From NCBI GenBank assembly GCA_003140895.1, contig PLLH01000035.1, forward strand, positions 1 to 59,328: a stretch of 59,328 bases of DNA, written 5' to 3'. Shown in pieces: positions 8,364 to 47,924 of this stretch. Origin of the DNA: Elusimicrobiota bacterium. Lineage in GTDB: Bacteria; Elusimicrobiota; Elusimicrobia; F11. Numbering within the stretch: position 1 is the first letter of the stretch; every line of letters begins with the position of its first letter. The position numbers were made by a program, and so were the translations under genes. Below the pieces are notes generated by a model, which searched no databases, was not told the origin of the DNA, and was given only the letters and a program-made list of their open reading frames with translations.

Positions 8364-8487
8364 ATCAAATCAATCTCCGAGCAGATCACTTATAAATGTA
8401 AGCAATAACCACGATTTTTCCAGACGTTTCTATAAGGAAGGCCGTGAGATGTTAAACCAGCGGGACGGATTCCTGCGGCAACGGGTC

Positions 8488-27233: not shown

Positions 27234-27244
27234 GCGTTTTCTTT
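27208..27244 (+). terminator. Candidate intrinsic terminator embedded in the last codons of the giant ORF
   Basis: AAACGC[GGCAGCC-GCG-GGTCGCC]TAA-GCGTTTTCTTT. The inner 7-bp stem has one mismatch and one G-U. An outer AAACGC/GCGTTT pairing follows, then a T-tract that runs into the stop codon of the convergent gene. Confidence 0.35.
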
Positions 27245-28715: not shown

Positions 28716-28716
28716 A

Positions 28717-31700
28717 TTAGTCCGATAGCCGCTTATAATATTTCTGAATAATTTGCTCATACGCCTTGGGGTATTTTTCCTTTAACGCTTCCAATAACTC
28801 TTCACGAAATTCCCGAGGAGGACGATAATCCTCTAGACGAGGCAATTTGACGGGACCTTGATCCAACCCCTGGCCATTGCGAGAAGATCCCCTCCAAATC
28901 ACTTTGGGGCCCCCCAACGCCCCCCCCGCCCCGCCTTTTCGGCGCATCGACATTCCGCCCATTTGGTTCTGAGCCTCTCCCAGCGCATCCTGAGTATTTT
29001 GAAGATGCCGCAACGCGTTCTCTTCCGACGATTGCGCCTCATGACTTTCGAAAGAACCCAGATGGCGGCTGGCCTTGTCCATCTCTCCTTTGGCGTTCGA
29101 GAGAGATTGTGTCATGGAGATTCCCAAGCTGGCTGTTTTTTGCGACAAGGCCTGAAGGTTCTTCTTTAAGGCGGCGGTCCTTTTGGAGAGATCTGTTTGT
29201 TTATTCTCAAGCCCCGGGAACGCGCCGAGATCTCCTGATGAAAAGAGCCCCTTGGGAGGAGGGGACTTGCGCAACAGCTCCAAAATCTCACGTTCGTCTT
29301 TCTCCAACGACTCCGCCTCAGGCTGAAGGGACACCGGCGCGCTGGACGCTTTAATGCCATCGGAGGCCAACCCCATCTGCCGCACCACGCCTTCCAACAC
29401 ACCCACGCCCTCCTTGAGTCTGCCCGTCTCCATTTCATGCAAAACACCCTGCAGTGGGGCGATCTGATTGCGCAAAAGAGCGGCCGGCCCCGCGGGCACC
29501 GCGGGTTTGTTGGCAAACGAGTGCGTTCGTTCAATTAAACGCGCCTGGCGCTTCGCCAGCTGCCCCAAAAGAGTTTCCTGCTCTTTCATGAGAGCCGATA
29601 AGCGGCGCGTCTCCAGTTCCTGCGTCTTCGAAAGAAGCGTCCGTTCCTCGTCGATCACCGCGTTTAATTCCGCCTCTTGCTCCGTTATTTTTTTCGACAA
29701 TTCGCTGGCGGAGTTTTCCTCAACAAAGGAATCGTACGCTTTGGAAAGCTGGCTCTTCATTTTTTTGGCGGCTTCCAGAAATTTTTGCGCGAGCGAAAGC
29801 GCCTTTTTTGTGTCCCCCTGTTTCAGGGCCTCGGCAATCTGAGACAGAACGTCTTGCGACTCCTGAAGATTCAACGTCTTAACTCCCTCCTGATTGATGA
29901 AGTCGTCGGGCAACTCTTGAGGCATCTGCTGAACGGCGCGCGCCATGTCGGCCAACGTCCGTTGGGCTTCATTGATGAGATCGTTAATTTTGGCCATCAC
30001 GTCTTTGTTTTTGAGATCGGGCGCCGCGCTGAATTCCTTTAAGAGCTGTTCTCCAGCCTCTTGAAGCCGATCTCCCGCCTCAACCACATCCCGCGCTTTC
30101 TGATCTTTGCTCAACTTATGGGAAAGGGCCACCATTCGTTCAAGTTCAGACGACACGTCGGACAAATGAAACGAAGCCGCGGCCTTGTTGTCGGTCTGAA
30201 ACGCCGCTTCGGAATATTTCATGGGCCCCGCGTTCATGGCGGACAAATTCCCCTGAATGGACTTATGCTCCAACCAGACGCCGTAATCGGCCATCGGATC
30301 TTTTTCCATTTGGTTGACAAGGCGTTGAAGACTTTTTTCGAGGCCAAGGGAGTCGGACATCGCTTTATTGAGCGGCTCCATGAGGGAACGCAAGGAGGCG
30401 GAAGACGAATCCACGGACGCTTTGAGCGTGTTCACGTCCGCCAACAGATCCACGGCTTTTCCCCGCCACTCTTCCAGAACGGACTCCAACGCCGCGTGCG
30501 TTTTCTCAAAGCTCGCGATCTCGATCAGTCGCCAGGGGGTAAGGCTCTTGCCCGGGCCAGTCACGACATTCGCGTCGACCGCTTCCAAACGAATCTGAAT
30601 CACATCTCCCGGGCGAAATTTTTCTCCGCCCAAATCCCACTCAACCGTGGAAAGAACGGTTTCCCTGGGCGGATCAAAAAAGGCCACTTGCTTGGAACCA
30701 GAGAGCCCCCCGGATTTTTCCCACATAAGACGAACTTCAGAGACCCCGTAATCATCGGAGGCGTCAAACGTCAGCGGAAGCTTTTCTTTGTCCCCCACAA
30801 TCACATCATCGCTCGGAGACAACAGATGAATCACCGGCGGGCTGTCGGCTTGAACGTGAATCGGAAATTCCCCCACGCCAAGACCCGGGCGCCCGTTCTG
30901 CAAGTCCAAGGCGAACCGATACGTCCCGCTTTTCTCCAGCAAGAACGCCACATCCACGCTATTGTTTGATACGGTTCCCAACCGTTCCCGGCCGTCGGAA
31001 AATTGAACCAGCGCCTTGGCGACCGGCATTGAAAAATCAAGCGTCATGTGAACCTGTGTTCCCGCCAATCCGGATAATTCGAGCGACGACTGATGAGAAG
31101 CCGCCTTTTTCAGATAGGACGGCGGCGTTACAATCAATTCCGCCTTTTTCAATTGAAGGGGCTTCATCGGTCGAAGCACATATCGCGGGCTCCACTCTTT
31201 TTTCCATCTCACCTTGTAGCTGACCGGTTCAACGAGATTTCTAAGACGGAAAAAAGAATGATTCGCCGAAACAGACTCGGGCTCAAAAACCGTCCAATCA
31301 CGATGAGCTTTGATGGCCAGCTGCGGTCTCTCGATGGACGGGCAAAGAAGAGTCACTTGAATGACGGCGTCTTGCCCCCATTCCACGTTGGCGCTCCCGG
31401 GATTGACCCTTAAACAGGATTCAAGTGGACTCGTTGAAAACGGAAAATAAATCCGGGGGGTGAGTGGAAACACGTGAGGAAACGCGGCCCACAACGAACC
31501 GGCCACAATCACAACGAGACTATTAACAGCCAACGCCCTCCGCCACATCCACCGAGGACAACACGCCCACGGACGTTGCTGTTTAACGGTCGAGGCCGCC
31601 TCTCGCAGATACTCTTCGCGCAAACCGGAGGAGAGACCGGGGCGCTCTGTCTGAGAAGACAATTGAACCGCTAAAAACAGCGTATCTCGACGAAGAAGTT

Positions 31701-32001
31701 CGCCAGACCCCTGTTCTCTGGATCTGTTACGCCAGAGATTTTTCGATTGTTCCTTTATAGAAAACAACGTGAGCGGCAAGAACGCATGGAGAGCGAGGGC
31801 CCCGGCCAAAAGAAGCATTGCGATCCAGACGGTTTCCCTCACCCAGGACTCCATCACAAGCCATTGATCGAAACCGCTGAGGAGAAGGCAGGAACTCACC
31901 AGAAGAGGTATCGCGCGCGACATCCCCTTGAACAACAAGGACAGGAAAACGCAAAGCCTCGCTTTCCGCAGAAAGAGACGGATTTCAGGAATCGCGTTCA
32001 C
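28717..32001 (-). CDS. Large envelope protein, DUF4175-like architecture
   Basis: N-terminal TM helices, a central beta-rich region (...DASDDYGVSEVRLMW...), a long Q/L/A/E-rich helical C-terminal half, and the tail ...YEQIIQKYYKRLSD. The track start 32043 is GTG. GTG 32001 forms a GTGA overlap with the upstream stop, and ATG 31923 is another option. Confidence 0.65.
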   Translation of the reverse strand: MNAIPEIRLFLRKARLCVFLSLLFKGMSRAIPLLVSSCLLLSGFDQWLVMESWVRETVWIAMLLLAGALALHAFLPLTLFSIKEQSKNLWRNRSREQGSGELLRRDTLFLAVQLSSQTERPGLSSGLREEYLREAASTVKQQRPWACCPRWMWRRALAVNSLVVIVAGSLWAAFPHVFPLTPRIYFPFSTSPLESCLRVNPGSANVEWGQDAVIQVTLLCPSIERPQLAIKAHRDWTVFEPESVSANHSFFRLRNLVEPVSYKVRWKKEWSPRYVLRPMKPLQLKKAELIVTPPSYLKKAASHQSSLELSGLAGTQVHMTLDFSMPVAKALVQFSDGRERLGTVSNNSVDVAFLLEKSGTYRFALDLQNGRPGLGVGEFPIHVQADSPPVIHLLSPSDDVIVGDKEKLPLTFDASDDYGVSEVRLMWEKSGGLSGSKQVAFFDPPRETVLSTVEWDLGGEKFRPGDVIQIRLEAVDANVVTGPGKSLTPWRLIEIASFEKTHAALESVLEEWRGKAVDLLADVNTLKASVDSSSASLRSLMEPLNKAMSDSLGLEKSLQRLVNQMEKDPMADYGVWLEHKSIQGNLSAMNAGPMKYSEAAFQTDNKAAASFHLSDVSSELERMVALSHKLSKDQKARDVVEAGDRLQEAGEQLLKEFSAAPDLKNKDVMAKINDLINEAQRTLADMARAVQQMPQELPDDFINQEGVKTLNLQESQDVLSQIAEALKQGDTKKALSLAQKFLEAAKKMKSQLSKAYDSFVEENSASELSKKITEQEAELNAVIDEERTLLSKTQELETRRLSALMKEQETLLGQLAKRQARLIERTHSFANKPAVPAGPAALLRNQIAPLQGVLHEMETGRLKEGVGVLEGVVRQMGLASDGIKASSAPVSLQPEAESLEKDEREILELLRKSPPPKGLFSSGDLGAFPGLENKQTDLSKRTAALKKNLQALSQKTASLGISMTQSLSNAKGEMDKASRHLGSFESHEAQSSEENALRHLQNTQDALGEAQNQMGGMSMRRKGGAGGALGGPKVIWRGSSRNGQGLDQGPVKLPRLEDYRPPREFREELLEALKEKYPKAYEQIIQKYYKRLSD

Positions 32002-33674
32002 GAACCCCCGGCTTTCCCGGAGGGAGAGCGAGCCGGCGCCCACCTTTTAAGGATCTCGGGATGATCGGAAAAATCATAGACGAAAATACTGTATCCAATC
32101 ACCTTCCACGGTTTATAGTCCTTTAACCACGCGTACACATCTTTCCGCGTGTAATACGTCGACTGAAGGTGCGTTGCCGAAATGGCGAATTTGGTCGGTT
32201 GAAAACGCGGATCAGCCCGATCGTCCTCCCGGCCGCCAATCGGAATCGGGCCTAAATCCATATAGCGAATCCCATAGGCGTGAGGGTCTCCGACGCCAAA
32301 ATAACACAAGTAAATCCCTTTCTCGATATCCGACGGTTCCAACGCCTGCTTAAGCAATTTAAGTCCCTGCCCCCAATCGAGATTAGAATCCGTTAAATAA
32401 CGGACTCCGTTTCGAGGACCGCCCACGGCTTCGTTGAAGTAGGCGATGTAATGAGGTTTGACGGAAACACACGCAACGATCGACCAGCCGATAAGAAGTC
32501 CGCCCACCCAAATAAACCGGTTTGACAATTTGGAAAGTCCCACCGCGGCCGCCACAAATAGAAAGGGATAGACCGCCAAGATGTGCCGATGCCCAATCTG
32601 AACGGTGGACGCGCACGCCAAACAAAAGAAAACGAGGGGCGGAATACAAAGAAACGGGGACAGCACTATCTTTTTTTTGATGAACATCGCCAGTGAAATC
32701 CCCAAACCGATAAGGAGTGGAATCGGTGTTTTAATTAAAAAGACCGCCGGGAAATAGCCCAGCCATCCTGTGACCCGGTGATCTCCAAAGAAAAAGCTGC
32801 CGCGGCCCCGTTGATTCCGGAACATGGCTTCCTTCAATCCTTCCCAATAGATCGATAAATTTCCAAACCCATAAACAAACCACAACGTCAGAAAAGCGAC
32901 GGACACAAGACACAGAAAAGAGATTTGCTTCTTTCGTTCCATGAGAAAGGGCTCAGCCAAAAAGCGCTCTCCGTGACGAACCCGGCGGAGCCCCCTCCAT
33001 AAGAGAAGGGCTAGAACGGAGGGAAGAATGGCCACAGACATATGTTTACTGGCCAGACAAAGCCCCAATGAAATCCCCGCCAAAGCGGCGATCAAAAAGC
33101 TTTCTCCCAGAACCGAACACAACATAAAAAACGCCGAGAAGAATAAAGCGAACGCAAAGTCCGTCGTCACAACGGTGCCGTTGGCCAGAATAATCGGCGA
33201 AAAGCACCAGAAGACAAGAGCGTAGAGCGCCGCCTTCCCGCCGGCGGATTTCCTTACAAACCAGAAAAGAAAGCCCCCCATCAGCAGAGACAAGAGAAGC
33301 TGCATCAAACGTCCAGCGGTCAACAACGTGTCCGCGGACACATGGTTGTGATACAGAAAGCGATCCGCGAACGTATATTGATCCAGAGCGTTCCATTCCT
33401 GACGTACCCAAGCCGCGTCATTGATCGGAAGGCTTGAAGGGAGGACCAAGAGGGGAAGAGCCGCCCACATCTCGGCAAACGGCGGATGATGAAATCCGGC
33501 GAATCGAAAATCTCCTGTTTTGAGATAAATGGCGCCGGCGGTCAAATGAACCGGTTCATCGTATGTCGGCGAAAAAACCCGGATCGGTTCCAACGCCAAA
33601 AGAACATGAATCAGGCACAATCCGCCGGCAACGACAAAAAGAAGTCTTGTTTTTTGTTTTTTAATGTCTCGCAT
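31998..33674 (-). CDS. GT-C fold glycosyltransferase, PMT/ArnT (family 39/83)-like, paralog 2
   Basis: 558 aa. First-loop motif YDEPVHLTAG, at least 10 hydrophobic helices, and a C-terminal soluble domain with YLTDSNLDWGQGLKLLKQAL. Confidence 0.7.
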   Translation of the reverse strand: MRDIKKQKTRLLFVVAGGLCLIHVLLALEPIRVFSPTYDEPVHLTAGAIYLKTGDFRFAGFHHPPFAEMWAALPLLVLPSSLPINDAAWVRQEWNALDQYTFADRFLYHNHVSADTLLTAGRLMQLLLSLLMGGFLFWFVRKSAGGKAALYALVFWCFSPIILANGTVVTTDFAFALFFSAFFMLCSVLGESFLIAALAGISLGLCLASKHMSVAILPSVLALLLWRGLRRVRHGERFLAEPFLMERKKQISFLCLVSVAFLTLWFVYGFGNLSIYWEGLKEAMFRNQRGRGSFFFGDHRVTGWLGYFPAVFLIKTPIPLLIGLGISLAMFIKKKIVLSPFLCIPPLVFFCLACASTVQIGHRHILAVYPFLFVAAAVGLSKLSNRFIWVGGLLIGWSIVACVSVKPHYIAYFNEAVGGPRNGVRYLTDSNLDWGQGLKLLKQALEPSDIEKGIYLCYFGVGDPHAYGIRYMDLGPIPIGGREDDRADPRFQPTKFAISATHLQSTYYTRKDVYAWLKDYKPWKVIGYSIFVYDFSDHPEILKRWAPARSPSGKAGGS

Positions 33675-33678
33675 GGCG

Positions 33679-35340
33679 TTAGGAGGGCCTTCTCATGGAT
33701 TCCAGGGCTTCCAGAGCGCCCGGTTGATTGGAAAAGTCGTACACAAAAATGCTCTCTCCGACGACGCGTATGGGTTTAAACTCGCTTAACCAACGAAACG
33801 CGTCTTTATCCTCAAAGTACGTGCCCTGCAGGTTCGTGATCGAAATGGCCAATGTCGTGGGCTTCACGGAAGGGTTGCCGGTGTCGTCCCGATGTCCGGC
33901 GATGACGTCGGACCCCACATCCAAATACGTGATTCCCTCTGCGTGCGGATCGGCCACGCCGAAATAACTCAGATAAATCCCCCGGCTCACGTCCTCGTCG
34001 CTCAACTCGCGCCTCAACAACTTAAGTCCTTGCCCCCAATCCACGTTGGAATCGGTTAAATAACGGTATCCGTTCTTGGGACCGCCGACGAATTCATTGA
34101 AATAGGCGATAAAATGCGGTCGCACAAGAATTGTTCCGGCGGCATTCCAGAGAAGAAAACAGGGAACAAGCCACTTAAGTCTCCCGGTGATCGCTCCAAA
34201 CCCGAGACCCGCCAACACAATCACAAAAGGATAGATGGCCAAAATGTGCCGGTGGCCGATTTGAACTTTTGAAATGCACGCCAGAAGAAAATAGACCAGC
34301 GGCGGGATCCAAAGAGCGGCTGGAACCGATATCTTCTTCCTCATCATCAAGACAATTCCGACGACACACCCCGTCAAAAGTGGAATGGGCGTTTTGACTA
34401 AAAACGTAAATGGAAAATAGAGAAACCATCCGTTCACCCCATGGCGGCCCGCGAAGAAACTCGAACGGCCCGCTTGAGACCGAGTAAAAACGTTTTTGAG
34501 ACCGTCCCAAAACACATCCATTGAGCCCCATTGAAAAACACTTTTGACCGTCAGAAAGGCAACGAGGCAAACAACAACAGCGTACAGATAATTGATTTTT
34601 CGAAACGTTTTCTTTTGAACGACGACGTCCCAAAAAAGGACGGCCGCCAGACAAGGGAAGACTGCCACCGCCAAATATTTACTCGCCACGCAAAGTCCCA
34701 AACTAATGCCTGATCCCACAACGGTTCCCCACCCCCGTGTGAGGCCGCTCAAAAAAACAAAAAAGGAAAAGAAAAAGCAGGCAAAGGCGAGGTCGGTTGA
34801 AACGATTGTCCCGTGCGTCAAGAATGTCGGAGAAAACCCCCATAACACAAGAGTCACAAGAGCGGGAATCAGACCTCCCATCCGAAACGCCACCCAGACA
34901 AGAAAGAACCCCAAAAGGACGGAGAGAAGAAGCTGCATTTTCCGAGCGGCAGCCAACATCGCATCGGCAGGAACGCGGTTGTGATAGAAAAAAAGATCCG
35001 CGAACCGGTATTGATCAATAGAACGCCACCGTTGAGCGGTCCACCGCGGATCATTTTTAGGAATAATGGGATTCAAAAAAATCAACGGGATAGCGGCCCA
35101 CATTTCTCCAAAGGGTGGATGATCATATCCGTTGAATCTTGTCTCACCCGTCTTCCAGGCCACCAATCCCGCGGTCAGATGGACGGGTTCATCATAGGTC
35201 GGAGAAAAAGTTCGAATGGGCCCCAACCCCAACATCACATGGATGGCGGAGACTCCCATCGCCGCCAACAACAGGAGAGTTAAATGAACACGATTTTTTT
35301 GGAGGACCGGCGGAATTTGAACGGTGGATGAAAGCTTCAT
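33679..35340 (-). CDS. GT-C fold glycosyltransferase, PMT/ArnT (family 39/83)-like, paralog 1
   Basis: 553 aa, collinear with the neighbouring paralog (YDEPVHLTAG; YLTDSNVDWGQGLKLLRREL). ATGA overlap with the upstream stop. Confidence 0.7.
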   Translation of the reverse strand: MKLSSTVQIPPVLQKNRVHLTLLLLAAMGVSAIHVMLGLGPIRTFSPTYDEPVHLTAGLVAWKTGETRFNGYDHPPFGEMWAAIPLIFLNPIIPKNDPRWTAQRWRSIDQYRFADLFFYHNRVPADAMLAAARKMQLLLSVLLGFFLVWVAFRMGGLIPALVTLVLWGFSPTFLTHGTIVSTDLAFACFFFSFFVFLSGLTRGWGTVVGSGISLGLCVASKYLAVAVFPCLAAVLFWDVVVQKKTFRKINYLYAVVVCLVAFLTVKSVFQWGSMDVFWDGLKNVFTRSQAGRSSFFAGRHGVNGWFLYFPFTFLVKTPIPLLTGCVVGIVLMMRKKISVPAALWIPPLVYFLLACISKVQIGHRHILAIYPFVIVLAGLGFGAITGRLKWLVPCFLLWNAAGTILVRPHFIAYFNEFVGGPKNGYRYLTDSNVDWGQGLKLLRRELSDEDVSRGIYLSYFGVADPHAEGITYLDVGSDVIAGHRDDTGNPSVKPTTLAISITNLQGTYFEDKDAFRWLSEFKPIRVVGESIFVYDFSNQPGALEALESMRRPS

Positions 35341-37490
35341 CGGGATTTCACTTTTGCGAGCGCCGCGTCCAGGTAATGCCGGGCTTCATTCATATGGGGA
35401 TTGAGCTGAACGGCCCGGCGCAGATGCTCCACCGCCAAGACCCAATCCCGGCCCCAAAAGGTCACGGCCAAATTGTATTCGGCTTGCGCCGTCGGGATAA
35501 CCCCAATTGAATTTTGATACGCCGTGCGAGCCGCGTCCAGCGCGCCTGTCTTCTCATAAGAAGCGCCTAAAAATAAATAGGCGTTAGCGAGATCCGACTT
35601 GAGTCCGTCGACGACATCCGGCAAACTCTTGAAGTCTTCAGCTAACTCCAGCATTCGCAGCCCCTTACGAATGGCGATCTGCTCCGCCGCCACCCCGTCG
35701 TTGTATCGCCCCTCAAGAAAATACATATATCCCCGGTCCGAGGCCGGGCGGAAAAACGTGGGATCCAAACACTCCGCTCGCTTAAAATACCAGTCGGCCG
35801 CGTCGAATTTTTTCTCCATCATCAACTCATATCCCATCCGTTGATGGGCCCGGGCGGCGTCGCCGATCAAATCGGTGGAGAAGAAGTCCGACGTTTCTCC
35901 GTAATGGCCTCCGCCCCGATACAGGCAAAGGTCCGGCAATATCAACTCGCGTCCCGGCCCGCCGGCGTCATTGGCCGCAATGATCTCGGTCACCATTCCC
36001 CGCGTGGAAAATTTGAGACCGGGGAGTAACGCCAATTCGGACTCATGCCCCACCACAAGGGCTCGAGAGCCAACGGCCCGTTTCATCAAAGGCCAGCCTT
36101 CCGCTGTTTTCACTTCCTGCTCCGGACAAGCGGCGGTTCCCCACCGTTTTTTCATCTCCCAGTACCAGGGACTGCCGGAGAGGCCGGAGGAAATCAGGGA
36201 AATATCAGGGCGGCGCCGCTCCACCAATTGCGCTTCCCATAAGGCAAACAACTGGACATCCTTATGGAAGACCACAACGGCGTTTCGCGGAGCGCTCCGA
36301 AACACATTTTCGACATAATCCCGAAGATAAAAATTATCTCGCTTGTCGGCCCGGGAATACCCCCACATGCTGTTTGAGAAAAATAAGAACGCAAGGCACA
36401 CAGCAGCAATCCGTTTCCAACGGATCCATCCCATAAACCACTGAAGGCCGAAACCGATGGCGATGGCGCACATTAAATCCGGAAGCGGATACGCCGCTTC
36501 AACGATGGCCAGCGCGTGAGGGTTGGGAGGCATGTTGGCCAAGAAAAGGAACAGCGGGCCGGTGACGACCAAAATCCCCCCCAGAAAAACCGTCAGCGCT
36601 CGATCTCGTTTGTATAAATGCCACGCTCCAATACCCATGGCGAGGCACCCCCACAGGCCAAACGCCTTAAACAGATGAGTGGCGTAAAGACGCATATTCA
36701 CGGGAAAGTTTTCGCCCCGTTGATACGAAAGAGACAGAAGGTCCAGCGTCCCGCTGTAACTCTTTCGCGTCATGGAATTGATCACCGCCAATAAGGTGTC
36801 GGGATTCCCCCAATCAATAACGGGATTTTGGCGCGAACGGATCAGAAGATAAGAAAACACACACAAGCCGATAAAGAAAAAGAGCGTTGAAACCCCGAAA
36901 CGGATCTCCGATTTGCGTGTCATCCAAAAGGTGAGGAGGAGAATCGGAATCACCAGCATGAGATCCATCCGGATCCCCAGCCCCAACGCCAACAAAAACC
37001 CGATGAACGGCACTTTCTGTTTGGATAAGACAGCCCAGAGAACGAAACAAAACCAGAAGATCCCGAAGGTGTACATTTCCGACACCGTCGCGAGTTCCCA
37101 GAAGGGATTGGAAAAACCAAACGCGACGGCGGCGATCAAAGAAGGAAGCGGGTCCAAAACTCGAAGAAGCCCATAAAAAAGGAAAACGAGAGCCAACGCC
37201 GCGCAGAAGGCGGAAAAAAGATTGGTTCGATAAGCCACATTCCCCAGAGGGATCCAAGTCGCCACGTGCCCCACCAACGTGTACACGGGATAGCCCGGTG
37301 GATGAGCGACGCTTAGGGTCGTAAGAAGTGACACCATTTCACCCGAATCCCTGTACGGCGCCACATGAGGCGCGGCCGTGTGCAGATAGAGGGCGAAGAA
37401 CCCCATGAACAAAAAGAAGCCGAGCCCGCTGTTCAAGAGCGAGGCTCCGCTTGTGGAAACGATGGACTGCTGGTTTTTATTTAATTCCAT
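35337..37490 (-). CDS. DUF2723 (TMEM260-like) GT-C membrane protein with C-terminal TPR domain
   Basis: The N-terminal motif ...APYRDSGEMVSLLTTLSVAHPPGYPVYTL... is typical of DUF2723. Polytopic. The C-terminal ~200 aa are TPR-like. Confidence 0.7.
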   Translation of the reverse strand: MELNKNQQSIVSTSGASLLNSGLGFFLFMGFFALYLHTAAPHVAPYRDSGEMVSLLTTLSVAHPPGYPVYTLVGHVATWIPLGNVAYRTNLFSAFCAALALVFLFYGLLRVLDPLPSLIAAVAFGFSNPFWELATVSEMYTFGIFWFCFVLWAVLSKQKVPFIGFLLALGLGIRMDLMLVIPILLLTFWMTRKSEIRFGVSTLFFFIGLCVFSYLLIRSRQNPVIDWGNPDTLLAVINSMTRKSYSGTLDLLSLSYQRGENFPVNMRLYATHLFKAFGLWGCLAMGIGAWHLYKRDRALTVFLGGILVVTGPLFLFLANMPPNPHALAIVEAAYPLPDLMCAIAIGFGLQWFMGWIRWKRIAAVCLAFLFFSNSMWGYSRADKRDNFYLRDYVENVFRSAPRNAVVVFHKDVQLFALWEAQLVERRRPDISLISSGLSGSPWYWEMKKRWGTAACPEQEVKTAEGWPLMKRAVGSRALVVGHESELALLPGLKFSTRGMVTEIIAANDAGGPGRELILPDLCLYRGGGHYGETSDFFSTDLIGDAARAHQRMGYELMMEKKFDAADWYFKRAECLDPTFFRPASDRGYMYFLEGRYNDGVAAEQIAIRKGLRMLELAEDFKSLPDVVDGLKSDLANAYLFLGASYEKTGALDAARTAYQNSIGVIPTAQAEYNLAVTFWGRDWVLAVEHLRRAVQLNPHMNEARHYLDAALAKVKSR

Positions 37491-39549
37491 TCACTTTCAA
37501 CTTTTGCCCCATGCGCTGCCGGGCTTGTTCCAGATAGACGCCGGCGGAAGGATGCCGTGGATCGCGGCGAAGAACCTCTTCAAGATATGACAGGACCTTG
37601 GGCCAATCCTTCTCATGCCAGGATAACACCGCCAAGTTATACACCGGGTCGGCCACATGAGGGAACAGGCGTGCCGATTGCTCATATTGGGCGCGGGCCT
37701 CGTTCGGACGTCCCGATTTCTCCAAAACAACCCCCAAATTTCCCTGCGCTTGCGAATTCATCGGATCGAACCGAATCAATTCGCGATACACACGTTCCGC
37801 CGCGGCGTATTGCCCCGACTGAAAAAAATTAAAGGCGATCTTGGCGTAGTCAAACCCCAAATTGGTTTTAAGCCAATCCACGCCCTCTCCTATCGATTGA
37901 GCTCGCCGGAAAAACAACAATCCCTCATCGATCAAGCCATCGGCCAACAACGATTTCCCATTCATATACGGGAAAAAGGCCGCCAAGGCGCGCGTTCGGT
38001 AATCGGTCGGATGAACCGGATAAAGAGACCGCAAAATCATCACCGGCCATGGAATCGGCCTTAAATCCGATGATGGAACCGCCAGCAGAAACCCGGATGG
38101 AGCCAACGTCACGCCCGGAAGCGCTTTTTCATCCAACGTCGAGTAATAAAGGGGTTTCACGCCAAGATAGGCCTTCTCGACCTGCTCGCGCCGGTTTGTT
38201 TTCTCTTCCTTTGGGATATGACGAAAATCATCTCCGTACACGTTATGAAAAATGAGCCCGCCCCGGTCGTGCAGCTCGACGTCCGGTCTCTTCCCCATGC
38301 CGTATTGAAGATACGCCAAGCTATAAAAAGCGTCGTCTCCGCCGTCCATGAACAACACGGAACGCGGCGGGAGCGTCCGGAGCATGGTTTGTCCGTAGTC
38401 ATACACCAGTTTGGCGTTCCGATGGGACGAGGCCTCCGCCCATCCGCGCGTCACAGGAACCGCCGTCAAGAGAAGCACCAACACCGTTCCAACCCAGGCG
38501 TGAAACATCCCCATCTCAACCAAGCCCAATAAAAGCGCCATCACGGGCATGATGAAAAACCGCCCCATGATGCCTTCCGATTGGGCGGTAAAGGGAAGAT
38601 TGGAGAGGAGATAAAACAAGGGGCCGGTAAAAAAGAACATCGCCAAGAGCGCCGAATAAAAGGGCTTGTTTCGGCGAAGCCCCAACAGAAGTCCCGCCGC
38701 CCCCAAAAGAAGAATCGGCCACGGCATCTCCCGATTGAGCTGGCGTCCAAACGTCGCGAGATGCCGCCCCGTATTGGCCAACGACCGTTCCGGCGCGTCT
38801 CCGATCGACAGTTTCAATGAACCATAATCTTTTCGAGTGATCGTTCGATATAAATTGCTGACAGTCGTTGGGTGCCCCCAATTGAGAGGCGGCTCCTTTG
38901 CCGAGCGGATGGGCAACGCCAAATAAATTGAAAATCCCAACAGAAAAAAGCCGGCGCAAAGAAAAAGGGACTTCGTCCCGACGGACTTCGTCCCGAAACG
39001 TGATCGATAAAACCATGCGAAAGCAATGAGCGATGGAATAAGAAAAACCAAAACCTGATGATTCCCGAGCCCGAGCCCCAGCAAGAAGGAAAATAAGAAA
39101 AATCGCGAAAGTGAAGACGTATCACCGGCAGAGAGAAGAATAAACAAAAGAAAAGTCACCAAACATGTGTTCAGAGAAAACACTTCCGTGACCAAACTGT
39201 TCATCCAAAACGAGGTTGAAAAAGCGATCAGGCAGACCGTCGACACGGACACCCAAAGCCCGGCTTTCAACCGGCGGGCGATCAGGAAAAGGAAGAGAAG
39301 GGATAGGCTCGACGTCAGGCTGGAGAAAATATTGAGCCGGACCGAGGCCGCGCCCCACGGCACCAACTCCAGAAACACCCGCCCCAACACCATATAAAGC
39401 GGGAATGACGGCGCGTGCGCCAACGACAACGTCGCCACGGACGTCATAAACTCACCGGAATCCCCCGCCGTGACGCAGGAGGCCGCCTGATGGAGGTAAA
39501 GGCCAAACGATCCGAGAAAAACGGCCAGTAACACGATCTTGTTCTTCAA
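37477..39549 (-). CDS. DUF2723 (TMEM260-like) GT-C membrane protein with C-terminal TPR domain, second copy
   Basis: ...TAGDSGEFMTSVATLSLAHAPSFPLYMVLG..., polytopic, with C-terminal TPR repeats. The TTG start forms a TTGA overlap with the upstream stop. Confidence 0.7.
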   Translation of the reverse strand: MKNKIVLLAVFLGSFGLYLHQAASCVTAGDSGEFMTSVATLSLAHAPSFPLYMVLGRVFLELVPWGAASVRLNIFSSLTSSLSLLFLFLIARRLKAGLWVSVSTVCLIAFSTSFWMNSLVTEVFSLNTCLVTFLLFILLSAGDTSSLSRFFLFSFLLGLGLGNHQVLVFLIPSLIAFAWFYRSRFGTKSVGTKSLFLCAGFFLLGFSIYLALPIRSAKEPPLNWGHPTTVSNLYRTITRKDYGSLKLSIGDAPERSLANTGRHLATFGRQLNREMPWPILLLGAAGLLLGLRRNKPFYSALLAMFFFTGPLFYLLSNLPFTAQSEGIMGRFFIMPVMALLLGLVEMGMFHAWVGTVLVLLLTAVPVTRGWAEASSHRNAKLVYDYGQTMLRTLPPRSVLFMDGGDDAFYSLAYLQYGMGKRPDVELHDRGGLIFHNVYGDDFRHIPKEEKTNRREQVEKAYLGVKPLYYSTLDEKALPGVTLAPSGFLLAVPSSDLRPIPWPVMILRSLYPVHPTDYRTRALAAFFPYMNGKSLLADGLIDEGLLFFRRAQSIGEGVDWLKTNLGFDYAKIAFNFFQSGQYAAAERVYRELIRFDPMNSQAQGNLGVVLEKSGRPNEARAQYEQSARLFPHVADPVYNLAVLSWHEKDWPKVLSYLEEVLRRDPRHPSAGVYLEQARQRMGQKLKVNGIK

Positions 39550-41618
39550 GGCAATCCTTTTTTCTTTCGAAGAAATAATTCAACCGTCAGAAAGAGAAGA
39601 CCCAACAAAAGGAGGACCGGAGAATTCCAAACGAGCACTTTTTTCCCCACGTTTTGAGCCACGTCCGCGTGAAATTCATTGAGCGACGATTCCGTCACGT
39701 CTTCCGCGGTTAAAAACCGCCCCCCGGTTGCCTTCGCCATTTCGTTCAACAACGAAAAGTCAGGCCGCAAATCTTCCTCTTCATTATGGCTCTCTTTGAC
39801 CTGAACGTTGATTTTATCATCCCCGTAGACGTTTCCACCCCGGAACGCCCACGCTTTGATGGTAAACGCCCCCAATTGATCAGGTTTAAAAAGACAGGAA
39901 TAGACCCCCGTCGTTTCCTGGCGCGCCGGAAGCGGCCCTTTTTTACCGTCGGGAAGCGTCACCTCGACACGCACATCCACGCCGGAGAGAGGCTTGAAAT
40001 AATCGTCATACACCCAGATCCGGAGCGCCTGTTCTTCGCCTTCTTTAATATTTTTTTCGTCAAAGGCCATCCGAACCGGTTTAAACTCATCCGAATGCGT
40101 GAGCCAGAGCACCATGTTTTTCCAAAACTGCTGATAGCTGTCGAACGACAACGCGTTCTCTGATGGAATCATCGACCAACGCCAGGTGGTGCGGGTCGAC
40201 AGCGCTCCCACCCGCCCTTTTCCCACCCGCCATACCGTTAAGACCGGCGCTTCTTTTCCGTCGATCAACGCGGTTCCCAGCACCGTGGCGCCCGGCTTGA
40301 CACCGGGCAAAATCGTCAGGCCGTCCAACGGCGGAAGTCCCTCCCACATTTTTTTGTTCCTCTCGGGATTCTCATCCAACCGGAGAATCGGATGAGACAG
40401 CGCCTTCGGCACGAATCGAAACGTCTCCTCGGTTGTCTTGACCGGCATCGAACCGAATTGAACCGGGAGAAGTTCATTCGACCCGGGAAGCGCGTAATCG
40501 CTTCCGGCGCCGAAGACGACCGGCCCCCCCATCAAAAGAAAACTCCCGCCCCCTTCCACTTTCCGCCGGATGGCCTCCATGATCCCGGGCATGAGGCCGT
40601 ATTGGCGGTAGGAAAATTCTTCAAACACAACCAGGTCGAACGTGGGCATCTGCTGGACAAGCGCTTCTTGCGTCGGAAACGGAATCAGCGACAGTTCCGA
40701 ATCCGGAACCGACACGATATTCCCGGCGTTCCGTAAGATCACGAACGTCACCAACTCAACCGCCGGGTCCGCTTTAAATTGATGCCGGAGAAATCCGTAT
40801 TCGGGGCCCGGCTGGCCGCAGATATACAGAACTCGAAACCGGTCACGGCCGACGTCCAACGTGATATCCCTTTTATTATTCAAAAACGTCGCTTCACCGG
40901 CGTATTGCCCCACCTCGACGGTCAAATTCTTTGTTCCGATGCGGGGTGGCGTCCATGAGAAGTTGACCGTTGTTTCGGCTTCATGATCGGTCACGTGAAT
41001 TTGTTGCAGTGAAAGAACGTCATCTCCGTCCCGAAGCTTCACGGAAATATCTTTCCCTTCAAATCCGGTGGCCGCGATCGTCGCGGCGAGCGAGGTTTGA
41101 ATATTCTTGAAGGCGAAAGGCGGCGCTTGAATATGACGAACGGCAATGTCTTTGAACATCTGTTTATTCCCAAGCCCGATCAACAGCAACGGGCGTCCGG
41201 CCGCCGCGGCGGCCGACACCGGGTCGCCTGATCCCACCTGGCGGCCATCCGTTAATAGAACGGCGCCCCGAAACCGGTCTTCCCCAAGAACGGTTTTAAG
41301 AGCCGACGCCATGTCCGTTTTTGAACCTGTTGCTTCCAGTTTTTTCACGTCCGCCTCGGTTTTCAATTCCGTCACTCGATCGGAGAAGGAAAAAAGTTGC
41401 GTTCGAGGGAAGGACTTGCGCACCATCGGCAGGAGGCGTTGGGCGGCGGCCAGCCGCATCTCCTGATCCTGAACGCGCATGCTGCGAGACGTATCCACAA
41501 GAACGGCCCAAGCGGACGGAAGGCTCGGATCGGGACGCGTGACCACCGGTTTCATCATGAGAACGGCGGCCACGATGAAAAAGAGACCGCGAAGAACCCA
41601 AAGAAGTTTATTTGTCAT
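39546..41618 (-). CDS. Membrane-anchored VWA-like / class-I-glutamine-amidotransferase-like protein (Bat-cluster type)
   Basis: 690 aa. N-terminal TM, VWA-like start AVLVDTSRSM...LLTDGRQ, the central motif FDLVVFEE...VEGGGSFLLMGG, and a C-terminal TM. Confidence 0.65.
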   Translation of the reverse strand: MTNKLLWVLRGLFFIVAAVLMMKPVVTRPDPSLPSAWAVLVDTSRSMRVQDQEMRLAAAQRLLPMVRKSFPRTQLFSFSDRVTELKTEADVKKLEATGSKTDMASALKTVLGEDRFRGAVLLTDGRQVGSGDPVSAAAAAGRPLLLIGLGNKQMFKDIAVRHIQAPPFAFKNIQTSLAATIAATGFEGKDISVKLRDGDDVLSLQQIHVTDHEAETTVNFSWTPPRIGTKNLTVEVGQYAGEATFLNNKRDITLDVGRDRFRVLYICGQPGPEYGFLRHQFKADPAVELVTFVILRNAGNIVSVPDSELSLIPFPTQEALVQQMPTFDLVVFEEFSYRQYGLMPGIMEAIRRKVEGGGSFLLMGGPVVFGAGSDYALPGSNELLPVQFGSMPVKTTEETFRFVPKALSHPILRLDENPERNKKMWEGLPPLDGLTILPGVKPGATVLGTALIDGKEAPVLTVWRVGKGRVGALSTRTTWRWSMIPSENALSFDSYQQFWKNMVLWLTHSDEFKPVRMAFDEKNIKEGEEQALRIWVYDDYFKPLSGVDVRVEVTLPDGKKGPLPARQETTGVYSCLFKPDQLGAFTIKAWAFRGGNVYGDDKINVQVKESHNEEEDLRPDFSLLNEMAKATGGRFLTAEDVTESSLNEFHADVAQNVGKKVLVWNSPVLLLLGLLFLTVELFLRKKKGLP

Positions 41619-41629
41619 AACGATTCACG

Positions 41630-44446
41630 CTAATATCCCAATTTACGTTCGATAAACGGTTGATGGATCGCGTCCCGTTTGTAGGTTCCAGTCAAACTAA
41701 AGTAAATGACGTTGACCGTGAGTTTGAACGAATCCCACCGCTGGGGTTCCCCCCCGGGTTCGCACACAAAAGTGTATTGGCCCAATTGATCGCGCATCCA
41801 GGCCCCCAGTAAATCGTTGGGGCAATAAATGACCGCGGTCCGGGCTTCGCCGCCCCGCCCGCCGATGTCCAACCCCTCCAGCGTGTTTTCCGAAATCCGC
41901 CGGCCGCCGACATTTCTCAACAAAAAGAAGGAACGAAAGATCGGATGATCGAGCGGAAGTTTTTGAAATGTTTTATCAGGAAAAAGCTCCGACATCAGTT
42001 TCCGAACCGATTGGCCGAAGGGCCCGTTTTTATCGGCCAAGGTATCGTCGAAAAAGACAAAACCGCCGCGTTCAATGAATTGCTTAAGTCTGTTTTTCTC
42101 TTCTCCGGAAAAGGGCAACACCGCGTTCCCCTTCACGATCAGGAACGGAGATTCGAAGAGAGCGGAGTCCCGGAGCGTCACGACTTTCCGATCGGCGACG
42201 AGAGGGATATTGGTCATCGACTGAAGCATCTCAAAGATTTTCTCGTGAACCGATGGATACGGATCCCATGCCCCATCGTATTTGAGCTGCGTATAGACAA
42301 ACGCGTTCGCGGTGCCTCCCACACTCGGCGAAGGAAAAAGGGGACAGAGGAGGAGTAATACCGCCGCTCCTCGCACGGCGCGCCAGCGTTCAAACGTCCA
42401 GGAGAGAGCCGTCTCAACCAGGAAGAAGAGGATCAGAAGAACAAGAAGAACCTTCGTCAAATCCCATCCTTGAAGAGCGGAGAGGATGCGTTCCGGCGTG
42501 TTGCGCTGAACCGACATGACCGTCACGGAGGACCGGGGAAAAATAGTTTTCAGTTCTCCCTCCGTGACACGCGTTAAATCTCCCTCCCGGCCAGCGTCTT
42601 TGATATGTACCGCCACAAATAAATCGGATTCTTTTCGCTCCGTTCGAATCCGGTAGAGCCCGGGAACCGATGGGGTGGGCCCTTCCATGAGGCCATCCTC
42701 ATCAACCCGACCCCCGCTCACAGAGCCGTCCGGAGAAACGACGGACAGGCGCTGCACCCCAGGGGCCAGCCGAACCCGAATGGGTTCCCCGACAAATCCG
42801 TTTAAGGAGGATTCCTCTCGTGACGGATCCGCCAAGCGGGACAGGAGCTCCCGCATGAGCGGAGCAAACAAGGGTTTGGTGGGAAAATTGGACCAATCCC
42901 GGTCCACCGTCGTCGACAAACAGAGAACCGTTCCCTTTCCATATCGTTTCAGGAAAAGAAGCGGCGACCCGTTTTTTAATTTCAACAAAACCTCAGTGGA
43001 AGAATCCGGTTCGAGCGGCGCGTATTGGCTCACTCGCGCCTCAGACCACTCAAACTCGTCCAGACCCGTCACGTCTGAGAGGAAAGATTTTTTAGAATCC
43101 GGAGATCCCAGCCCCGGCGCTTCCAGGGATTGGGAAGAAACAACGCTTTTTTTAAAATGGAACAACCCGAAGGGCGACGAGGGCGCCCCCGCCCATTTCC
43201 CCCCGGCTGTAAGAAACAGTCCGCCTCCTCCCTCAATCCACTTAAGCAGTTTTTCTTGCGTCTCAATGGGACCCAACGTATTCGCCAACACAATGACATC
43301 GAATTGATCCAGGGACACCATCGGCAGGGATTCCGGGCGAATGACTTGAATCGATTGAAGCCGCGGATCGCGCCGCGACTCCAGCGCCGACTTGAGGTAA
43401 TACGTCTCAGAATCAGACGGCGCCAAGCCGCCTTCACCGTCGACGATCAAAAGGCGAAACCCTTTGGACATCCGGCCGGCCACATACATCACATCGTCAA
43501 ACGGAAGGGCGTCCGCCGTGAGGCTCACCTTGCCGGAATACACGCCGCCTTCCGGCAAACGCGCCTCCAGCGGAACCGTTTCCGTCTCATTCCCCGTGGA
43601 GGAAAGCTGGCCTTGTTCGATCACGCGCCCGTTCATTTCAAGGCGCCACACGTTGGCGGCGCCGGCGGAGGAATGGCGTCGGACAACGAACTGCCCTTTG
43701 AGCGTGCCTTCTTCTCCCGGCTGAAGGGACGCCTCGGCGATGCCGACGTTAGGGACTTTTTCCACCACCTCCGACACAAGAACATCGACATCCGGGTCAT
43801 ACCCGTCCCAACGGCCGCCCGCCTCAAGCCCTTTCAACCATCCGTGCCGCGCGTTGTCCGATAAAATAAGAAGCGACCGCCGGCCGCGCGGTGCGTTGGC
43901 CAACAAGCTCATCCCTGATTTAAGAGCCGGCAAAATATCCGTTCCGCGAGGAAGGACCGTCAACTCATCGACGGCGGATATCAGTTTGGCCCGGTCCGTG
44001 GTGGGCGCCCATTCTTTGTCGATCTGATTGGACGTGGAGACCAACCCAACGCGGGTGGAAGGCGGGAGCGCCCGCAACACGGCTTTGAATTCGTCTTGGG
44101 CCATTTCCAACGCGGACCGCCCCGCTGACACCGCCCCCATCGACGCCGAGACGTCCATGAGAACCACCAGCGTGGATTCGTCCGATTTGGATTTAAACGG
44201 GCTTCCCCCATGAAAAACAGGACGCGTAAAAAACAGGATCAGGAAGAAGAAGAGGAGAGACCTGAGAACCAACAAAAGTATTTCCCTCAACCGTTTCCTC
44301 GGCATGAACGATTGGTGGGCTTGTTTGAGCCATTCAATATGGCTGAACACCATTTTTTTAGGTTTTTTCTTAAACAGGAAATGAAGAACCAAGGGAATGA
44401 ACCCCAGAGGAAGCGCCCAGAGGAAAAGAGGACTGAGGAACGTCAC
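41630..44446 (-). CDS. BatA_N double-TM + VWA + GATase-like protein fused to a C-terminal DUF4159-like module
   Basis: The N-terminus (from GTG 44446) TFLSPLFLWALPLGFIPLVLHFL is BatA_N-like. VWA start VVLMDVSASMG, then FDVIVLAN...IEGGGGLFLTAGG, an internal TM plus a signal-like stretch near aa 670-715, then FVYTQLKYDGAWDPYP...FLIVKGN...ERGGFVFFDD (DUF4159-like). The track start is GTG 44464. GTG 44446 gives a GTGA overlap. Confidence 0.7.
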   Translation of the reverse strand: MTFLSPLFLWALPLGFIPLVLHFLFKKKPKKMVFSHIEWLKQAHQSFMPRKRLREILLLVLRSLLFFFLILFFTRPVFHGGSPFKSKSDESTLVVLMDVSASMGAVSAGRSALEMAQDEFKAVLRALPPSTRVGLVSTSNQIDKEWAPTTDRAKLISAVDELTVLPRGTDILPALKSGMSLLANAPRGRRSLLILSDNARHGWLKGLEAGGRWDGYDPDVDVLVSEVVEKVPNVGIAEASLQPGEEGTLKGQFVVRRHSSAGAANVWRLEMNGRVIEQGQLSSTGNETETVPLEARLPEGGVYSGKVSLTADALPFDDVMYVAGRMSKGFRLLIVDGEGGLAPSDSETYYLKSALESRRDPRLQSIQVIRPESLPMVSLDQFDVIVLANTLGPIETQEKLLKWIEGGGGLFLTAGGKWAGAPSSPFGLFHFKKSVVSSQSLEAPGLGSPDSKKSFLSDVTGLDEFEWSEARVSQYAPLEPDSSTEVLLKLKNGSPLLFLKRYGKGTVLCLSTTVDRDWSNFPTKPLFAPLMRELLSRLADPSREESSLNGFVGEPIRVRLAPGVQRLSVVSPDGSVSGGRVDEDGLMEGPTPSVPGLYRIRTERKESDLFVAVHIKDAGREGDLTRVTEGELKTIFPRSSVTVMSVQRNTPERILSALQGWDLTKVLLVLLILFFLVETALSWTFERWRAVRGAAVLLLLCPLFPSPSVGGTANAFVYTQLKYDGAWDPYPSVHEKIFEMLQSMTNIPLVADRKVVTLRDSALFESPFLIVKGNAVLPFSGEEKNRLKQFIERGGFVFFDDTLADKNGPFGQSVRKLMSELFPDKTFQKLPLDHPIFRSFFLLRNVGGRRISENTLEGLDIGGRGGEARTAVIYCPNDLLGAWMRDQLGQYTFVCEPGGEPQRWDSFKLTVNVIYFSLTGTYKRDAIHQPFIERKLGY

Positions 44447-45330
44447 AGGCGCGCCGACCTCCACGACAAATACGCTCCCAATCCTTTATCGAACGGAGTA
44501 TCCGTGGTGAGAAAATGATAATCCAATCCGGCGCTTCGAAAAACGTGAGCCAACGTCGCCAATTTTTCTTGAACAAGGCGCTGATACGCCGCTCGAATCA
44601 CATCCGGATCGGATTGAAGCGTTTCACCCGTCTCCACATCTTCAAACACAATCGGCCCCGAGAAAGGCAAGTCTCGTTCGGCGGGGTCGAACACGTTCAA
44701 AACAATGACCTCGTGTTTCCGGGCGTGAAGGGCCAAGAGCGTCGACACGGTTTTCTCGGAGTCGGCCATGAGATCGGAGATCACAATCAACATCGATCGT
44801 TTCCGAGAAAGAGGCCCCACTGAATCCGCCAAGGCCGACACGTTCCAAATTCCCTGCGGCTGAACAGACTCCAACGAGGCGAAAAAAGGGTCCAGATGAG
44901 ACCGGGAGCTGTTGGCCTGCAAAACAGTTCCTCGAGATAAAAGACCCACCCCATCCCGCTGAGAAATGAGGAGATACCCCAACGCCGCCGCCAGCGTCTT
45001 GGCGTAATCCAGTTTGCTGAGACGCCCCCCCCACGAACATCCCATGGACGCCGAATCATCCAACAAAATCATCGAGGCCATGTTGGTCTCTTCTTCGTAT
45101 TTTTTGATCACGAGCCGGTCGGTGCGGCCAAACGCTTTCCAGTCGATTCCCTTTAAATCGTCTCCGGGATGATACGCCCGGTGTTCGGAAAAATCCTGGG
45201 AGTTTCCGTGGATGGGATTTTCATGATGGCCGGAATAAAGGCCGTCCAAAATGCGACGGGCCCGGAGTTGGAGGTTCCCCAACTGAGCGATGACAACGGG
45301 GTCGAGGGGTGATGGGTGTTGAGAATTCAT
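44443..45330 (-). CDS. DUF58 family protein (MoxR-associated, VWA-like)
   Basis: The core ...GNSQDFSEHRAYHPGDDLKGIDWKAFGRTDRLVIKKYEEE...ILLDDSASMG is typical of DUF58. The track start 45348 is TTG. ATG 45330 is preferred. Confidence 0.85.
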   Translation of the reverse strand: MNSQHPSPLDPVVIAQLGNLQLRARRILDGLYSGHHENPIHGNSQDFSEHRAYHPGDDLKGIDWKAFGRTDRLVIKKYEEETNMASMILLDDSASMGCSWGGRLSKLDYAKTLAAALGYLLISQRDGVGLLSRGTVLQANSSRSHLDPFFASLESVQPQGIWNVSALADSVGPLSRKRSMLIVISDLMADSEKTVSTLLALHARKHEVIVLNVFDPAERDLPFSGPIVFEDVETGETLQSDPDVIRAAYQRLVQEKLATLAHVFRSAGLDYHFLTTDTPFDKGLGAYLSWRSARL

Positions 45331-45360
45331 GATGAGCAACTCGTTCAACTTTTGTTAAGT

Positions 45361-47867: not shown

Positions 47868-47924
47868 ATACACATTTAACAACTAAAACCGATAAACTTC
47901 CCGGTTTTTATGGCGCCAAAGGGG

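Follow-up and report, generated by a model that had tools for sequence, protein, structure and literature searches.

Human TMEM260 is an endoplasmic reticulum (ER) protein O-mannosyltransferase for the IPT domains of plexins, cMET and RON; its enzymatic activity was recognised in 2023, and a structure followed in 2026. The enzyme combines 11 transmembrane (TM) helices with a lumenal Rossmann-like 'palm' and a 'finger' of tetratricopeptide repeats (TPR) (10.64898/2026.03.17.711096; PDB 9RQL/9RQM/9RQN). In searchable papers, DUF2723, the former name of the family's Pfam domain PF11028, is treated solely in the 2023 TMEM260 paper, which cites 'distant homologs in bacteria', and no studied bacterial member of the family was found in that literature. 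Here, we analysed a stretch of 59,328 nucleotides (nt) of DNA from an Elusimicrobiota bacterium (contig PLLH01000035.1; the whole stretch is called the window below), in which two tandem genes for TMEM260-like proteins of 717 and 690 amino acids (aa) lie within an envelope operon of ten genes. The results indicate that both proteins belong to the TMEM260 family, that they carry its catalytic residues, and that they occupy fixed positions in an operon conserved across the phylum.

Other described systems resemble this locus in part. TMTC1-4 (GT105) also consist of a GT-C core followed by lumenal TPR, and act on beta-sandwich clients. The PMT/POMT enzymes (GT39, including the Pmt of Mycobacterium and Streptomyces) have the GT-C fold and an acidic residue in the first extracytoplasmic loop; they use a polyprenyl-phosphate sugar donor, their acceptors are Ser/Thr residues of exported unfolded proteins, and in eukaryotes they act as fixed paralogue pairs. 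The gene context resembles the Bat/MoxR operons of Bacteroides fragilis (batA-E) and Borrelia (BB0170-BB0176), in which MoxR, DUF58 and BatA_N/VWA genes are likewise followed by genes for TPR-bearing proteins. No glycosyltransferases inside Bat/MoxR operons were found in the searchable literature.

An earlier note, made from the window sequence, had proposed that the two tandem DUF2723 plus TPR genes encode protein O-glycosyltransferases resembling TMEM260 and TMTC, with substrates encoded next door. The coordinates, motifs and domain assignments of the pair were confirmed. Both proteins matched PF11028 (TMEM260-like) well above its curated cut-off of 24.2 bits (717-aa protein, 80.5 bits, E 1.7e-22; 690-aa protein, 79.9 bits, E 2.7e-22), with TPR matches at the C-terminus of each. 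The quoted motifs were present as RDSGE...VAHPPGYP at residues 47-68 of the 717-aa protein and GDSGE...LAHAPSFP at residues 29-50 of the 690-aa protein. Against human TMEM260 (PDB 9RQL), phmmer gave E 5.7e-28 for the 717-aa protein (residues 24-445) and E 7e-23 for the 690-aa protein (residues 9-447), and a profile of 54 relatives reached E 6.2e-68. The homology spans the whole membrane core and extends into the Rossmann-like domain, beyond the N-terminal Pfam domain. Judged by sequence, both proteins are true TMEM260 (CAZy GT117) homologues, beyond a shared layout. The TMTC half of the proposed resemblance did not hold in this sense: neither protein had a TMTC (GT105) match among the Pfam matches listed at E<=0.01, no sequence relationship was detected, and TMTC proteins lack the Rossmann-like palm that bears the catalytic base, so TMTC remains an analogy. 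The same applies to PMT/POMT, a separate family, as PMT_2 scored below the cut-off in the 690-aa protein (19.1 against 26.1 bits) and was absent from the 717-aa protein, and no MIR domains were found by Pfam in either.

The two proteins are 25% identical over their full length (E 5e-32). Both reading frames are intact, and the membrane core is strongly conserved throughout. The 717-aa protein starts at ATG, while the 690-aa protein starts at TTG 39549 (overlapping the upstream stop) or GTG 39534, its database record being 5 codons shorter (685 aa). The closest relatives were found exclusively in Elusimicrobiota metagenome-assembled genomes, the nearest, with 55% identity, being from Candidatus Obscuribacterium magneticum.

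We then considered the predicted structure. The AlphaFold2 model of the 717-aa protein (pLDDT 92.1, pTM 0.91) comprises 11 TM helices, followed by a five-stranded Rossmann-like alpha/beta domain of ~150 aa (residues ~382-535) and by ~180 aa that form ~9 TPR helices; the 690-aa protein aligns end to end with the modelled protein. A C-terminal TPR array of about 200 aa had been noticed before, but the Rossmann-like domain that precedes it had been overlooked. When the model was compared by Foldseek with a copy of the PDB without 9RQL, the best full-length matches were STT3, ALG9, PglB and ArnT, these GT-C matches having a TM-score of ~0.4, and TPR matches were also returned. The predicted fold is therefore that of a GT-C enzyme, as the earlier note had expected, and it has the architecture of TMEM260: the bacterial proteins share with the human enzyme the homologous GT-C core and Rossmann-like domain, the three-part arrangement and the length (690-717 against 707 aa), and differ from it in a longer TPR part (~9 against 5 helices). 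A topology with the N-terminus inside and the C-terminus outside is predicted. Because the number of helices is odd (11), because the topology of TMEM260 has been solved, and because the positive-inside rule puts short K/R-rich loops of the 717-aa protein (residues 110-113, 156-159, 192-198 and 356-360) on the cytoplasmic side, the lobe formed by the Rossmann-like and TPR domains is predicted to be periplasmic and not cytoplasmic. In this respect it differs from the lobe of TMEM260, which faces the ER lumen, and a periplasmic lobe would require a polyprenyl-phosphate sugar made by the bacterium as donor.

The residues required by TMEM260 were then compared. In the human enzyme, D52A, H67A, R264A, Y267A and D441A abolish activity, whereas R355A leaves ~20%; D52 and H67 are sugar-recognition residues in the first extracytoplasmic loop, R264 and Y267 belong to the donor-loading loop, and D441, which lies in the Rossmann-like palm beside the acceptor Thr, is the general base (10.64898/2026.03.17.711096). 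In our alignment, every activity-abolishing position is identical in both bacterial proteins, as is E55: the equivalents of D52, E55, H67, R264, Y267 and D441 are D48, E51, H63, R242, Y245 and D411 in the 717-aa protein, and D30, E33, H45, R239, Y242 and D405 in the 690-aa protein. The position of R355 is occupied by R330 in the 690-aa protein and by A332 in the 717-aa protein, which thus departs from TMEM260 here. Across 62 TMEM260-like proteins from 23 Elusimicrobiota loci, the equivalents of D52, E55, R264 and D441 are invariant (62/62), so that the acidic residue of the first loop, whose conservation the earlier note had singled out for checking, is Asp throughout; the H67 equivalent is His in 61 and an unreadable X in one. 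These residues make it very probable, as far as sequence can tell, that both proteins are active GT117 enzymes. That one or both are instead inactive, serving as TPR scaffolds or regulatory partners, is very improbable: the loss of the R355 equivalent in the 717-aa protein and the His that mostly replaces a sugar-contacting Tyr in its clade (see below) would fit such a role, but the activity-abolishing positions are kept in both proteins, with the equivalents of D52, H67, R264 and D441 kept across all clades, TMEM260 R355A retains part of its activity (10.64898/2026.03.17.711096), and the intact frames and conserved membrane core point the same way.

Next, we examined how widely the genes are kept, and in what order. 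Among 151 evenly sampled Elusimicrobiota genomes, the TMEM260-like family occurred in 52, DUF4175 in 45 and both in 41, and in the 52 genomes the TMEM260-like genes were often in tandem, ~2 kb apart. Twenty regions from many families, mapped with the window proteins, nearly all had the same gene order, namely MoxR, DUF58, VWA, DUF4159, VWA/GATase1-like, two to three TMEM260-like genes, PMT_2 and DUF4175; a peptidase/TPR gene came next after DUF4175 in many loci, including loci without GT-C genes. A second set of 80 species-level loci was gathered with search patterns specific to the clade of the 717-aa protein (clade 3, below). These loci were nearly all labelled Elusimicrobiota, a few being labelled only 'bacterium' and one Ignavibacteria. 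The VWA/GATase1-like gene lay directly upstream of the TMEM260-like array in 40 of 54 informative loci and was its most constant upstream neighbour, while downstream of the array DUF4175 was found in 16/43 loci and PMT_2 in 18/60. A functional tie of the TMEM260-like genes to the operon is well supported by these results. The consecutive minus-strand genes for a MoxR AAA+ ATPase (PF07726), DUF58 (PF01882) and BatA_N/VWA (PF07584, PF13519) mark the operon as a Bat/MoxR-type array, and the MoxR protein is 62-74% identical to the first gene product of the same operon in other Elusimicrobiota. It differs from the described Bat/MoxR operons in that its TPR-bearing genes are full glycosyltransferases and in the added DUF4159, DUF4175 and zinc peptidase/TPR genes.

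In a tree of the 62 proteins, three clades (supports 0.98 for clade 1, 0.60 for clade 2 and 1.0 for clade 3) coincided exactly with the first, middle and last positions of the array. The 690-aa protein belongs to clade 1 and the 717-aa protein to clade 3; the two are therefore ancient paralogues and not recent duplicates, in agreement with the strong divergence noticed earlier. This set of two to three fixed operon paralogues contrasts with the single TMEM260 gene in humans. The middle gene, of clade 2, is missing from the window operon and from that of its closest relative (L006), and the PMT_2-like gene, a single copy in L006 and most other loci, is present twice here. This lineage has thus lost clade 2 and duplicated the PMT_2 gene. 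In the present genome the duplication coincides with the clade 2 loss. The picture of two enzymes was consequently correct for the TMEM260-like pair and incomplete for the block, which holds four GT-C genes (two TMEM260-like and two PMT_2-like).

The clades also differ around the active site. Y267 and R355 are the two residues of TMEM260 that touch the mannose ring (10.64898/2026.03.17.711096). The equivalent of Y267 is Tyr in 20/21 proteins of clade 1 and 18/18 of clade 2, and His in 21/23 of clade 3, where the 717-aa protein of the window is one of two exceptions that keep Tyr; at the R355 position, Arg predominates in clades 1 and 2 and does not occur in clade 3. Around the catalytic base, the sequence is GGD[D/N] in clade 1, [R/K]ADE in clade 2 and [K/R]EDVQ in clade 3. 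Since the clades differ both at the sugar pocket and beside the catalytic base, the paralogues most likely differ in their client site and perhaps in their donor sugar. The suggestion of distinct specificities made in the earlier note is supported by these residues, which allow for different donors as well, and the changes that set the clades apart at the two positions in contact with the sugar amount to a testable prediction on donor specificity.

With family membership, catalytic residues, fold and gene order established, we infer for the enzymes a periplasmic orientation, a lipid-linked donor, a protein acceptor and clients among the operon's products. By homology to TMEM260, the 11-helix GT-C core would bind a polyprenyl-phosphate-linked monosaccharide at its periplasmic face, through D48/E51/H63/R242/Y245 in the 717-aa protein and D30/E33/H45/R239/Y242/R330 in the 690-aa protein. 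The periplasmic Rossmann-like palm would supply D411 or D405, respectively, as general base, and the TPR finger would hold an extended exported polypeptide so that a Ser/Thr hydroxyl could attack the sugar. A donor of this kind is plausible, since the genome encodes a number of full-length ArnC/GtrB/DPM1-type GT2 enzymes. The strongest candidate (C30:46210-47124) matches the ArnC model over its full length (E 1e-58) and is 52% identical to a GT2 that adjoins PMT and DUF4175 in another Elusimicrobiota genome. Also on contig C30 (L028:70-3385), a secretin gene was observed ahead of a gene for an ArnC/GtrB-like polyprenyl-phosphate glycosyltransferase of 315 aa, after which comes an overlapping gene for an LPG_synthase_TM-family membrane protein of 322 aa; this cluster is a possible source of lipid-linked sugar donors.

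The reading of the pair as protein O-glycosyltransferases is well supported, and the acceptor is probably a protein. The sole characterised family member is a protein O-mannosyltransferase, the equivalent of D441, which in TMEM260 lies beside the acceptor Thr, is invariant here, and the TPR domains of TMEM260, TMTC and OGT bind peptides in extended form. We slightly favour, as a whole, the reading that the proteins are inner-membrane GT117 glycosyltransferases which form a built-in module of the envelope operon and have operon proteins as their most likely clients.

Several neighbours have the required exposure. The VWA/GATase1-like protein (residues 27-660), the 944-aa protein (residues 81-668) and DUF4175 (residues 189-1108) are predicted by the positive-inside rule to be periplasmic over these segments, the C-terminal tail RKKKGLP supporting the topology of the first, and the VWA domain of the BatA-type protein BB0173 of Borrelia was found to be periplasmic by experiment (PMC5700661). 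DUF4175 has three N-terminal TM helices, three Ig-like beta-sandwiches (residues ~210-510) and a long helical half. An AlphaFold2 model of its residues 196-560 (pLDDT 89.7) contained the three Ig-like sandwiches followed by a long helix, and its Foldseek neighbours were multi-Ig ectodomains, complement MG domains and the adhesin SiiE. In this model, the sandwiches belong to the fold class served by the animal TMEM260 and TMTC enzymes. The large extracytoplasmic parts that the earlier note ascribed to the neighbours are thus predicted here too, while conserved gene order makes the substrate role it assigned to them no more than plausible. The membrane-anchored periplasmic proteins of the operon are accordingly the most likely clients in a tentative assignment, and that the clients are encoded in the operon is, taken by itself, somewhat less likely than not. 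A Bacteroidota D-S/T-hydrophobic motif was also considered and set aside, as it occurred 0-3 times per operon protein with no enrichment by eye.

A number of observations weigh against placing the enzymes and their clients in one operon. The TMEM260 signature P..P..GP..GG..T/S and its core GG-x-x-S/T are absent from all operon proteins, so that, in a further difference from TMEM260, the likely clients have no IPT-type sequon, and gene order alone cannot separate clients from proteins of the same envelope process. In one related genome without a TMEM260-like gene (L114), the operon is otherwise the same but lacks GT-C genes, which implies that the module works without glycosyltransferases. DUF4175 pairs more tightly with PMT_2 than with the TMEM260-like genes, and the PMT_2-DUF4175 pair persists where TMEM260-like genes sit elsewhere (L116, L118 and L119). 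Sequence on both sides was available for 14 of the 80 loci, six of which were lone TMEM260-like loci, and 11 of the sampled genomes have the TMEM260-like family without DUF4175. Finally, the genome of the window itself has a third TMEM260-like plus TPR copy, of 684 aa, outside the operon (contig C3, L032:9965-12019, minus strand), between proB/obg and ychF.

Two of these loci showed further features. In L114 (G105:C25, positions 7361-9455), two unrelated open reading frames (ORFs) of 314 and 376 aa separate the VWA/GATase1-like gene from DUF4175; in this locus the glycosyltransferase slot behaves as a swappable cassette position. On contig C3, the third paralogue was considered as the missing clade 2 gene and was ruled out, because it forms a long branch inside clade 1. 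Just past ychF on the same contig lies an ORF of 2,247 aa (L032:1955-8698) with no Pfam match.

Some of the same observations would fit protein O-glycosyltransferases whose clients are encoded elsewhere, such as a general exported or surface protein, the tie to the operon then reflecting a shared envelope role. TMEM260 modifies segments that are still unfolded while being translocated, and its choice depends on sequence, not on a neighbour (10.64898/2026.03.17.711096). The part without TPR has 12,641 cluster representatives at E<=0.001 and 6,506 at E<=1e-10, which makes for a very large family; several other genomic contexts occur as well, and the third copy outside the operon agrees with this. 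A specific candidate is also available in this genome. Contig C116 encodes a secreted protein of 1,244 aa with 13 tandem IPT/TIG repeats (L113:2702-6436, minus strand), which NCBIfam assigns to the 'choice-of-anchor Z PGGG repeat' (E 2.8e-116). Each repeat has the pattern PxIxxIxPNSGPxxGGTxVxIxG, and in about 5 of the 11 repeats that match the motif, S/T occupies the site that TMEM260 mannosylates in human IPT domains (GPxxGGTxV[T/S]). Against this, IPT/TIG domains were found in just 20 of the 52 family-bearing Elusimicrobiota genomes and were absent from many genomes with 6-8 copies of the family; as they are missing in 32/52, IPT/TIG domains were ruled out as a general conserved client. Three clades kept phylum-wide at a fixed place and in a fixed order are, moreover, hard to explain without a tie to the operon. 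Clients encoded elsewhere are for these reasons rather unlikely.

In the most far-reaching reading, PMT_2 and the TMEM260-like paralogues, of which there were three ancestrally and are two here, could form a dedicated periplasmic O-glycosylation module, each enzyme with its own segment or donor and possibly joined in a hetero-complex like Pmt1-Pmt2, with the VWA, DUF4159, GATase1-like and Ig-like DUF4175 proteins of the operon as sole clients. In this full form we consider the proposal unlikely.

Transfer of the sugar to a non-protein acceptor (lipid, lipopolysaccharide core, peptidoglycan or another envelope glycan), with the TPR docked on the MoxR/VWA machinery, is quite unlikely. Many bacterial GT-C enzymes use lipids or glycans, ArnT was among the structural matches, two further ArnT/PMT_2-type GT-C genes follow in the operon, and the sugar-contacting residues differ between clades. 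Classical Bat operons, such as that of B. fragilis, have TPR proteins in the same position and are not known to include a transferase. The protein-acceptor evidence given above, that is, the activity of the characterised family member, the invariant base and the peptide-binding TPR, speaks against it.

The remaining features of the window are collected in Table 1. The ten co-directional genes of the array run on the minus strand from ~46437 to 27243, and their junctions mostly overlap or are separated by few bases, with the exception of a ~90-nt gap between the MoxR and DUF58 genes. Within the TMEM260-like/PMT_2 block the overlaps measure 4 to 14 nt: a TTGA overlap precedes the 690-aa gene, the ATG of the 717-aa gene lies 14 nt inside the upstream 690-aa gene, and an ATGA overlap joins the 717-aa gene to the PMT_2-like gene.

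Table 1. Genes of the operon and its borders in the window, in order of transcription for the minus-strand genes
Feature	Length (aa)	Position	Strand	Evidence and remarks
Protein directly upstream of moxR	467	46479-47882	-	apparent signal peptide
MoxR-type AAA+ ATPase	332	45439..46437	-	PF07726 AAA_3, E 1.4e-64; first conserved operon gene
DUF58 protein	301	44443..45348	-	PF01882, E 3e-42
BatA_N double-TM + VWA protein fused in frame to DUF4159	944	41630..44464	-	PF07584, PF13519, PF13709
VWA/GATase1-like protein	690	39546..41618	-	N- and C-terminal TM anchors; sub-threshold PF07090, PF13519
TMEM260-like (GT117), clade 1	690	37477..39549	-	PF11028, 79.9 bits, + TPR; first array position
TMEM260-like (GT117), clade 3	717	35337..37490	-	PF11028, 80.5 bits, + TPR; last array position
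PMT_2-like GT-C membrane protein	553	33679..35340	-	50% identity to adjoining 558-aa paralogue
PMT_2-like GT-C membrane protein	558	31998..33674	-	PF13231, E 4.8e-7, 30.6 bits (cut-off 26.1)
DUF4175 membrane protein	1108 (1094 in database)	28717..32043	-	PF13779, E 2.1e-16
Secreted Peptidase_MA_2 + TPR protein	505	27243..28760	-	PF13485, E 4.3e-10, + TPR matches; last operon gene
Coiled-coil giant adjoining operon end	1,839	21714-27233	+	

The flanking 944-aa protein, which had been taken earlier as a single operon member, is present and is in fact an in-frame fusion of BatA_N/VWA and DUF4159. In most relatives these are two overlapping genes, and a fusion was also found in L026 (959 aa). Residues ~669-715 of the window's fusion still contain both the anchor that formerly ended the BatA_N/VWA protein and the signal-like start of DUF4159. 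The matches of the VWA/GATase1-like protein lie below cut-off (PF07090, 25.8 bits against a cut-off of 27; PF13519, 19.9 bits). The first loop of both PMT_2-like copies contains a YDEPVH motif, and both end in a soluble domain of ~150 aa, for which no family or structure match was found; a sequence search of the 553-aa protein against solved structures likewise gave no match. The N-terminus of the 505-aa Peptidase_MA_2/TPR protein resembles a signal peptide.

At the upstream border, the 467-aa protein had no Pfam or NCBIfam match, and its gene is not at the syntenic place in L006, where a thiolase gene abuts moxR. At the downstream border, the gene for the coiled-coil protein on the opposite strand is kept at the operon end in at least three relatives (L006, L037 and L047), with 38% identity in L006.

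Several points are new here. The clade of a TMEM260-like protein corresponds to its position in the operon, one lineage has lost clade 2 and duplicated PMT_2, and the changes in the sugar pocket are specific to the clades. The Ig-like model of DUF4175, the operon variant without glycosyltransferases and the rejection of IPT domains as general clients are likewise new. Because a full catalytic set is found in enzymes with a fixed place in a phylum-wide envelope operon, the list of candidate clients is short and concrete. If sugar transfer to them were borne out, a bacterial GT117 enzyme would gain an assigned function, and the MoxR/VWA/DUF4175 envelope module would prove to need glycosylated components. 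Should the pair and PMT_2 prove to be a dedicated module, it would be the first bacterial counterpart of the domain-specific O-mannosylation of animals and would offer the first biochemical handle on what Bat/MoxR-type operons build.

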